Shown here in pieces: positions 5,190 through 5,972 of a stretch of 64,000 nucleotides of DNA. Positions within the stretch are counted from its first letter, which is position 1; each line of letters opens with the position of its first letter. The stretch is taken from positions 5,054 to 69,053 of the IMG/VR virus record IMGVR_UViG_2623621019_000004; one strand, 5' to 3'. A program made the position numbers and the translations under genes. The notes under the pieces are model-generated. The model was not told the DNA's origin. It made no database searches and saw only the letters and a program-made list of their open reading frames with translations. The DNA comes from a virus (taxonomy: Duplodnaviria > Caudoviricetes).

Positions 5190-5922
5190 TAGCAAAGGGG
5201 AACAGATTGCTCCATTCCCCTCCGTAGTCTCTCCCGCAGGATGCCACACAATAATTATCGTACTATCATCTGTCTGTGCGACACGCTGGCAATCGTCATA
5301 GCCAGTCGGATTCCCAACCCTCACGGGCTGGCCTCTTTACCCTGCAAGCGGGATAATGGTAGTTTTATGAATCCTACTACCAAACCTCATTTAAACGGGT
5401 CTCGCACCCGTACTTTCAGTGCAGCCGTTCAAGTCGTACAATCACTTGCACACTCGTTCAGCCCGACAATATTCTAAAGCTAATGTATTATCGTACTTTC
5501 GTGGGGAACCACCGTAGTATTATCGTACTACCTGAGCCGTCGCTCAGCCACTCAACCAAGTAGCCAGGTCGTTCGTTTTTCCTCTACTCACTTGTAGCAT
5601 ACTCAACGAAAAAGAATATGATTATTCTAAAACTCACAGGGGCGTTTTGCGCACACCACTTGCAACTGAATGCCATCGAGTTCAGCTCGGCCAGTACGAA
5701 TCGCGTTCGTTTGGCTTGCCTACGTAACGGCTGCTGCTATTCCGTTCGGCTCTCTCGTTCAGTCGTTCAATACAACTGAATGGCCGTTCGGTCTCAGCAT
5801 ACGTTGTAACCGCCGCTCAGATCGTTCGTTCAACTCGTTCGTTCAGCCTGCTGGCTGGTCGTTCAAGTCGTTCGTTCGGTCGAACTCAGCATTTGAGCCT
5901 GCTGTGGGGCTGGGATAATCCC
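5190..5922 (-). ncRNA. Candidate ~700-nt structured non-coding RNA downstream of the hammerhead
   Basis: No credible ORF on the transcribed strand; many hairpins (GTAGTA-CGATAA-TACTAC, ACGGGT-GCGAG-ACCCGT, CCC-GTGA-GGG, CTGAGC-GACG-GCTCAG); many GAACG repeats. Confidence 0.6.
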
Positions 5923-5972
5923 GACGGGCACAATCCGTTTCGTCGCAATTTTCAGCGACTCATCAGGGGATT
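5917..5972 (-). ncRNA. Type I hammerhead ribozyme
   Basis: Minus strand AAUCCC-CUGAUGA-GUCGC-UGAAAAUU-GCGAC-GAA-ACGG-AUUGUGC-CCGU-C-GGGAUU: complete core, three paired stems, GUC cleavage triplet (cut between 5923 and 5922). Confidence 0.92.

Follow-up and report, generated by a model that had tools for sequence, protein, structure and literature searches.

Introduction

What can a self-cleaving RNA do for a phage when it is encoded directly behind an intrinsic transcription terminator? This question is raised by a type I hammerhead ribozyme on the minus strand (positions 5972-5917) of the 64,000-nucleotide (nt) stretch of DNA analysed here, the window, which comprises positions 5,054 to 69,053 of the IMG/VR virus record IMGVR_UViG_2623621019_000004 (Caudoviricetes) and thus most of this 69-kb record, classed as a provirus. 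Type I hammerheads are established in bacterial and phage DNA (PMC3088659; PMC13725137). Some prophage hammerheads were shown to cleave in vitro and in Escherichia coli, and they have been proposed to process polycistronic or otherwise long phage transcripts (PMC3088659), twister and hammerhead ribozymes share gene neighbourhoods, and the role of self-cleaving ribozymes in bacteria and phages is still open (PMC6765202). The site in the window is a genuine, complete and non-chance type I hammerhead motif, and comparison with related viral loci, designated below by L and a number, points, on balance, to a ribozyme that would cut RNA read through the terminator.

A full type I hammerhead motif on the minus strand

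The ribozyme lies in a leftward (minus-strand) gene string, divergent from the rightward replication genes which start at 7500, and is encoded on the same strand as the flanking open reading frames (ORFs). Its parts are the following.

5972-5917, minus strand: type I hammerhead ribozyme, 56 nt (from sequence, minimum free energy fold and covariation of relatives)
5972-5967 and 5922-5917, minus strand: stem I, 6 bp, 5' strand AAUCCC and 3' strand GGGAUU
5966-5960, minus strand: core CUGAUGA
5959-5955 and 5946-5942, minus strand: stem II, 5 bp, GUCGC with GCGAC
5954-5947, minus strand: loop II, UGAAAAUU
5941-5939, minus strand: core GAA
5938-5935 and 5927-5924, minus strand: stem III, 4 bp, ACGG with CCGU, loop AUUGUGC
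5923, minus strand: C17
5923/5922, minus strand: predicted cleavage site 3' of C17, placed by hammerhead numbering, so that the 3' product would begin with G5922

Read along the minus strand the order is AAUCCC-CUGAUGA-GUCGC-UGAAAAUU-GCGAC-GAA-ACGG-AUUGUGC-CCGU-C/GGGAUU, the slash marking the predicted cut. Every invariant hammerhead position is filled (C3 U4 G5 A6 N7 G8 A9, G12 A13 A14 and a non-G H17), and the pairs G10.1-C11.1 and A15.1-U16.1 (A5938-U5924) as well as the GUC triplet are present. Both RNA ends exit via stem I, with the loops UGAAAAUU and AUUGUGC closing stems II and III respectively; since stem I is open and the other two stems are loop-capped, the ribozyme is of type I. A first reading of the DNA by a model which had seen the letters only (the sequence-only reading) had called a canonical type I hammerhead with cleavage at 5923/5922; core and three stems are confirmed, supported by covariation among relatives, and the predicted scissile position agrees with hammerhead numbering.

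The minimum free energy (MFE) fold of the 71-nt piece 5975-5905 is exactly the hammerhead three-way junction at -18 kcal/mol, an energy which is in itself unremarkable (z -1.79). A descriptor scan for the core and three stems returned this one site only on both strands of the 64 kb, and the same descriptor, even with relaxed stems, found nothing in 300 dinucleotide-preserving shuffles. A wider scan (CUGANGA; types I, II and III) added just one type II look-alike with stems of 3/3/3 bp, which falls inside the coding region of a long ORF (34174-34275).

A recurrent phage hammerhead family below the Rfam cut-offs

The check proposed by the sequence-only reading, an Infernal search against the Rfam hammerhead models, turned out negative, all hammerhead families staying under their gathering cut-offs: Hammerhead_3 (RF00008) gives 25.4 bits against 48.5, with a permuted and partly wrong alignment, and Hammerhead_1 (RF00163) 20.8 bits against 34 (E 6.4e-4 in the 69-kb record). 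A scan of the whole window at E <= 1 gave no other ribozyme and no twister. As both scores are sub-gathering, the hammerhead call is confirmed by comparative evidence and not by Rfam alone.

This comparative evidence comes from a pattern in which the core and stem II are fixed, the loop is free to vary between 4 and 14 nt and stems I and III are unspecified. It occurs at 51 sites in 50 viral contigs, 47 of which also form stems I and III (41 type I, 6 type III); the other four fail a strict contiguous-stem rule, with imperfect stems visible by eye in L003, L015 and L031. Most family members carry UGAAAAUU or UGRRAAUU as loop II. When 26 distinct members were aligned, 95.4% of cells were paired, a percentage inflated by the use of a stem-requiring descriptor to select them. 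Double changes were observed in 11 of the 16 pairs; MAFFT had misaligned two rows at their 3' ends. None of 500 shuffles reached the observed covariation score, and pairing fell to 23-47% in controls with slid partners. In the alignment loop II is nearly invariant (UGRRAAUU). At 7 nt ahead of C3 there is an A in 24 of 26 members, with a purine after this position in all 26; many of the A's are part of a TAA stop codon.

A covariance model, R1, was built from the 26 aligned members; it gives the window 77 bits, a value which follows from the inclusion of the window itself in the seed. Among 13 related loci Rfam at gathering score reports no hammerhead family, while R1 detects hammerheads in 13 of 13. 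As well-conserved phage hammerheads thus fall under the Rfam cut-offs, routine annotation would miss this subfamily and under-counts such elements.

With these data the notion of a chance motif with no catalytic role becomes extremely improbable and is close to refuted. The Rfam scores under gathering and the fold z of only -1.79 would fit it, but not the empty shuffles, the 47 of 51 pattern sites which complete the fold or the syntenic hammerheads with compensatory changes in relatives described below.

Several family members occur in ribozyme-rich surroundings. A 10-kb viral locus, L004, contains between about 500 and 4600 on the minus strand seven type I hammerheads with differing stem II, each followed by approximately 10-20 nt, GGAGCT and an ORF in a dense layout of one ribozyme per gene. 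L039 combines at least four hammerheads of the window family with a Pistol match. Pistol and Twister-P5 matches above Rfam gathering (L045 2217-2290, L039 12299-12360, L007 9183-9237, L116 2977-3052) lie from a few hundred nt to about 1 kb away from family hammerheads.

The intrinsic terminator upstream of the ribozyme

Two features precede the ribozyme.

6049..6702, minus strand: upstream gene, listed ORF of 217 aa, stop codon 6051-6049
6028-5994, minus strand: intrinsic-terminator-like hairpin and U-run (13 bp, 6-nt loop; hairpin 6028-5997, T-run 5998-5994)

The hairpin, which starts 21 nt past the stop codon of the upstream ORF, folds with -21.2 kcal/mol (z -5.41) and was matched in stability by none of 200 shuffles; it is revealed by folding, the consensus terminator scan not having listed it. 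The intrinsic-terminator structure noted in the sequence-only reading is therefore real, but the distance from T-run to hammerhead is 21 nt rather than about 25 nt. Hairpin and T-run also precede the ribozyme in L055, L056, L116, L060, L114 and L115, with 13-35 nt between T-run and ribozyme, and in L055, L056 and L116 the complete order is stop codon, hairpin and T-run, 13-35 nt, hammerhead. Because the adjacency of the terminator is real and conserved in relatives, it was fair to conclude, as that reading did, that expression would depend on read-through or on an unseen promoter upstream.

The 217-aa protein itself has no Pfam, PHROG or NCBIfam match and retrieved no relatives as a query in viral contigs, and homologues of the upstream gene precede the ribozyme slot in L060 (52% over 143 aa), L115 (31%) and L116 (23%).

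A promoter at or just behind the terminator would be an alternative source of the RNA: the hammerhead would then strip a short 5'-triphosphate leader to yield a 5'-OH RNA, with no read-through RNA as substrate. The Bacteroides -7 box is TAnnTTTG, and two candidates resemble it: TAACTTTC, which in the window lies 10-17 nt ahead of stem I, and TACTTTTG, upstream in L056. Yet no such box is visible in L055, L116 or L060, only 13-35 nt separate T-run and ribozyme in the relatives, and a sigma-70-type scan, a type which does not cover Bacteroidales promoters, lists nothing there; we consider this origin of the RNA unlikely.

Hammerhead and twister exchange at an orthologous slot

Orthologous loci were approached through a conserved protein encoded downstream of the ribozyme.

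2319-4100, minus strand: 593-aa protein, widespread in Bacteroidales prophages, with no family assignment

A search with this protein gave seven related viral loci. Family hammerheads are located 0.7-3.6 kb upstream of the 593-aa gene on the same strand in L054, L055, L056 and L059, and none was found in L053, L057 or L058. L116, reached via a conserved non-coding block, has a hammerhead at the syntenic place. When 6800-4101 was compared by blastn with L054, L055, L056 and L059, the hammerhead was the only conserved part. Stem I AUCCC/GGGAU is common to the window, L054, L055 and L116; for stem II the window and L056 have GUCGC/GCGAC, and L054, L055 and L116 have GUCUU/AAGAC, while loop II (UGRRAAUU) is kept and stem III is different throughout. 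That the changes in stem II compensate each other while loop II is kept argues that the structure is under selection.

The sister of the window on the 593-aa tree (100 SH-aLRT, 55% identity) is L060 from a Prevotella metagenome-assembled genome, which shares the homologous upstream gene, the terminator, a leader rich in GAACGAAC and about 600 nt of downstream non-coding DNA with the window. L060 has no hammerhead; exactly at its place a twister-P1-like RNA is found (3586-3647; 47.7 bits, E 1.7e-7), which scores under the gathering score of 67.2, with the conserved twister positions aligned. Equally, in L115 (53.6 bits) and L114 (47.2 bits) terminator, twister-P1-like RNA, GAACGAAC leader and start codon follow each other. 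The matches in the slot of these three loci have E-values from 2e-7 to 3e-9, and twister-P1-like matches across all loci range from 42 to 54 bits, under gathering. The slot hence holds a hammerhead in four cases (the window, L116, L055 and L056) and a twister-P1-like RNA in L060 (L061 is identical), L114 and L115. A second ribozyme 3' of one or more small ORFs is a Twister-P5 above gathering in L060, L115 and L116, and a twister-P1-like RNA behind a small ORF in L055 and L056.

On the 593-aa tree, which includes 27 of 61 related loci and the window, the presence of the hammerhead requires at least three changes, with all five carriers within one group of 11 rows. No hammerhead was found in the 54 loci from bacterial genomes, and Rfam at E <= 0.05 found no ribozyme in L064, L070, L093, L101 and L097, of which the first four derive from isolate strains and L097 from a complete Muribaculaceae genome; a carrier that can be cultivated did not emerge from these loci. 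R1 gave no match in the three genomes holding L060, L064 and L070 or in 151 genomes of the family of the L060 genome, searches in which only part of the candidates were scored and which are uninformative. The 593-aa homologue of L060 (6001-7812) has one in-frame stop about two thirds along, entered as X in the tree; it could reflect a pseudogene, an assembly error or recoding.

The swap of the ribozyme class at an orthologous slot suggests that the cut itself is selected; cutting the RNA at this place seems to be what matters. For one lineage of Prevotella-type prophages a conserved slot can be proposed, in which a self-cleaving RNA of interchangeable class stands about 13-35 nt behind an intrinsic terminator and always at the head of the GAACGAAC leader; selection on cleaving terminator read-through RNA as such is a tentative generalization from these loci, to which we give somewhat less than even weight. 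If true, the slot would be a natural terminator-plus-ribozyme insulator which gives the delayed transcript a new 5' end (5'-OH), while the terminator hairpin caps the upstream mRNA. Related prophages carrying a hammerhead, a twister or nothing at orthologous sites between a terminator and the same leader provide a natural comparison, and, because the ribozyme content of these sites varies, the benefit of cleavage to the phage is directly testable with reporters.

Proposed cleavage of terminator read-through RNA

The reading that we favour, with moderate confidence, is that a cis-cleaving ribozyme cuts terminator read-through RNA and thereby would fix the 5'-OH end of the downstream RNA. The polymerase would read through the strong terminator that follows the first gene of the leftward operon, or be antiterminated there, and transcribe the 56-nt ribozyme, which would fold and cut in cis after C5923. 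The upstream mRNA would be left with the terminator hairpin, the ribozyme body and a 2',3'-cyclic phosphate end, so that it would contain the terminator hairpin near its end whether it had been terminated or cut about 70 nt later. The downstream RNA would gain, from any promoter, a uniform 5'-OH end (GGGAUUAUCCC...) heading the GAACGAAC-rich leader; with its 5' end fixed whatever the promoter, the fates of upstream and downstream RNAs would be uncoupled. This mRNA-processing reading follows the proposal made for prophage hammerheads (PMC3088659; PMC6765202). Cleavage, read-through RNA as its substrate and an effect on stability or translation are what we infer from the arrangement.

Several points weigh against this proposal and have to be set beside it. 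Among the listed sequencing runs none is recorded as RNA, and contigs from two of them match small shares of the DNA, none spanning 5335-5937. Both Rfam hammerhead models stay under gathering at the site, and the aligned family members were pre-selected for stems. In a context of 191 nt the MFE structure is not the hammerhead but a fold that competes with it: AAUCC is paired to a GGAUU inside stem III, and GGGA to the downstream UCCC which is also part of the possible hairpin of the 3' product. This fold could trap part of the RNA in an inactive form. A tertiary contact between stem I and stem II is needed for fast hammerhead cleavage at low Mg2+; no pairing partner of the conserved loop II was identified among the 26 sequences, so that fast cleavage at cellular Mg2+ is not assured. 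By eye, loop II of the window, L055 and L116 can be drawn into a pseudoknot with UUUC upstream of stem I; most family members do not show it, and it is speculation. Furthermore, of the 43 distinct type I family instances with enough flank, just 6 have a terminator-like hairpin within 90 nt upstream, whereas 20 start no more than 10 nt from a stop codon. The link with a terminator thus belongs to the lineage of the window, plus L006 and L009, and not to the whole family. Finally, the window has, unlike its relatives, neither a small ORF after the leader nor a second ribozyme, and no ORF of at least 40 aa starts within 400 nt of the ribozyme, which may thus have lost its original client.

This last point opens a further alternative, an intact but idle remnant, in which the small client ORF and the second ribozyme have been deleted and the hammerhead has not yet decayed. 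ORF and second ribozyme are present in L055, L056, L060, L115 and L116 and missing in the window, and the patchy presence of the ribozyme, with at least three changes on the tree and none found in the 54 genome loci, in L053, L057 and L058 or in the five further loci (four of isolate strains), would suit such a decay. All core bases and the three stems are nevertheless intact, and the downstream operon would still need read-through RNA, which together make an idle remnant improbable compared with a ribozyme that cuts read-through RNA.

The leader and non-coding stretch downstream

Behind the ribozyme the following features extend to the next conserved gene.

5700..5890, minus strand: leader rich in GAACGA/GAACGAAC, directly behind the ribozyme (motif counts, repeats, relatives)
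5182..5819, minus strand: conserved non-coding stretch with AATCATATTCTTT and AGTACGATAAT blocks (nhmmer against L060)
5609-5623, minus strand: AATCATATTCTTT block, identical in the window, L060, L055 and L056, also in L116
5254-5267, 5487-5500 and 5519-5532: three copies of AGTACGATAAT, motif on the minus strand
5014..5166, minus strand: first conserved ORF behind the ribozyme (50 aa), aligned by tblastx with L060 4896-5030

Of 27 GAACGA sites on the minus strand of the window, 11 stand between 5454 and 5877. The leader region contains repeat families of 13 and 19 nt and the repeats have a period of 4 (GAAC/ACGA); Tandem Repeats Finder reported none in 5000-6200, and the GAACGA sites are irregularly spaced. 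A run of GAACGAAC motifs follows the ribozyme also in L055, L056, L116, L060, L114 and L115. In relatives a start codon comes immediately after this run (AAAACGAACGAAC..ATG), which gives it the look of a leader or 5' untranslated region (UTR).

Further downstream nhmmer aligns 5182..5819 with L060 4095-4659 (E 6.2e-25), a stretch over which tblastx gives only short matches with stops. The only minus-strand ORF of at least 40 aa between 5922 and 5167 is a 48-aa GTG frame (5324-5178), itself with no match. The AATCATATTCTTT block sits in otherwise diverged non-coding DNA, and arrays of AGTACGA-type motifs are found at the equivalent place in L060, L116, L055 and L056; the AATCATATTCTTT and AGTACGATAAT blocks may be promoters (a phage-specific element), operators or iterons.

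These data bear on the possibility that the hammerhead matures the 5' end of a non-coding or regulatory RNA of about 750 nt (5922-5170), whose GAACGAAC repeats could bind or sponge a protein. Such an RNA would account for the concentration of GAACGA in the stretch, for the lack of an ORF of at least 40 aa on the minus strand until 5324/5166 and for blocks conserved with L060 at the nucleotide level in the absence of an open frame. On the other hand, the leader of the relatives leads straight to a start codon like a 5' UTR, no Rfam family matches, and the repeated AGTACGA and TCGTTC motifs equally fit operators or iterons at the DNA level, with the one independent homologue being too few for a structure test. 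A regulatory RNA of this kind is thus a rather unlikely product, and ribozyme cleavage at the head of an mRNA leader is retained as the preferred reading.

The 5' end of the predicted 3' product

Two sequence features adjoin the predicted cut.

5916-5912, minus strand: AUCCC, directly 3' of stem I
5912..5922, minus strand: possible hairpin GGGA-UUA-UCCC, 4 bp and triloop (MFE of 5922-5880, RNAfold)

The sequence-only reading had let the 3' product refold into this hairpin. RNAfold does predict it, but not beyond chance, as 50% of shuffled tails have an equal or longer 5'-terminal helix (p = 0.50). In the family 14 of 46 instances have a 5'-terminal helix of at least 5 bp against 8.35 expected, a weak enrichment, and in L007, L014, L020, L024 and L034 the strand of stem I takes part once more in a striking 5'-terminal hairpin, of 6-9 bp. 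With these values the hairpin was rejected as a selected feature of the window.

The prophage and its host

The window encodes a terminase, portal and major capsid protein, a D5-type primase-helicase and a Holliday junction resolvase. Homologues of the 593-aa protein occur at 54 loci of bacterial genomes, nearly all from Bacteroidales, with Prevotella, Bacteroides, Phocaeicola, Muribaculaceae and Rikenellaceae among the genera and families; based on this distribution, the host of the prophage is very probably a gut or rumen Bacteroidales bacterium, Prevotella-like. An Atlas lead to PcfJ for the 593-aa protein has a score of 0.79, under the trusted level. The neighbouring proteins have no NCBIfam match and their Atlas clusters are all hypothetical; blastn of 5000-7000 against the INPHARED phages gave no match.

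Three observations concern other parts of the window. A tRNA-like gene (62346-62484, minus strand) has normal acceptor, D and T arms, but its anticodon arm contains an insertion of approximately 72 nt; it reaches 36.1 bits with the Rfam tRNA model, ARAGORN makes no call, and it could be an intron-bearing or a disrupted phage tRNA. An island of low GC content (12152-18300; 0.34-0.35 versus about 0.45), with a 784-aa BspA-type leucine-rich-repeat protein, looks like cargo and not like core phage genes. The structural module includes two very long ORFs on the plus strand, 28516-34818 (2100 aa) and 35948-45943 (3331 aa).

Comparison with known systems

Type I phage hammerheads are already known and the window hammerhead adds one more; what is modestly new is the slot behind the terminator, in which the ribozyme class can be exchanged. 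A slot adjacent to a terminator with an interchangeable ribozyme class and a GAACGAAC leader was not found described in the open-access texts searched.

The closest relatives are the intergenic prophage hammerheads of Perreault et al. (2011; PMC3088659), which have the same consensus core and three variable stems and are DNA-encoded in a prophage. Like these, the window hammerhead is intergenic, lies within one operon and is on the strand of the flanking genes, and relatives of the window (L039, L004) likewise flank single genes with several ribozymes. Unlike these, the window has a single copy; its place is behind a terminator instead of next to a stop codon, and about 750 nt with no ORF come after it. 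The Rfam families RF00163 and RF00008 (clan CL00010) have the same core and three-way junction, and both models align to the window site, the difference being that it scores under their curated cut-offs.

Twister (RF03160 twister-P1, RF02684 Twister-P5) is an unrelated fold, of which the window has none; it holds the slot of the window hammerhead in L060, L114 and L115 and also fills the second slot behind the small ORF in L055, L056, L060, L115 and L116. This sharing of the slot fits the common neighbourhoods of twister and hammerhead in the published account (PMC6765202).

VIPR vrRNA arrays (bioRxiv 10.64898/2026.04.26.720920) consist of 9-16 YNNGG pentamer repeats and can be interspersed with hammerheads, so that a phage-encoded hammerhead beside a repeat-rich non-coding stretch is common to both. 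The window differs in having just one hammerhead and repeats of period 4, and a vrRNA array was rejected, as neither strand of the window has a run of four or more GGYNN units. Such arrays have a RAMP-like Vipr protein as neighbour; the proteins next to the window hammerhead match no Pfam, PHROG or NCBIfam family.

RiboJ-type synthetic insulators are engineered elements derived from a type III satellite-RNA hammerhead. By analogy with these, a hammerhead ahead of the leader would make the 5' end of the mRNA constant whatever lies upstream, a likeness which concerns the possible working of the window element and not its membership.

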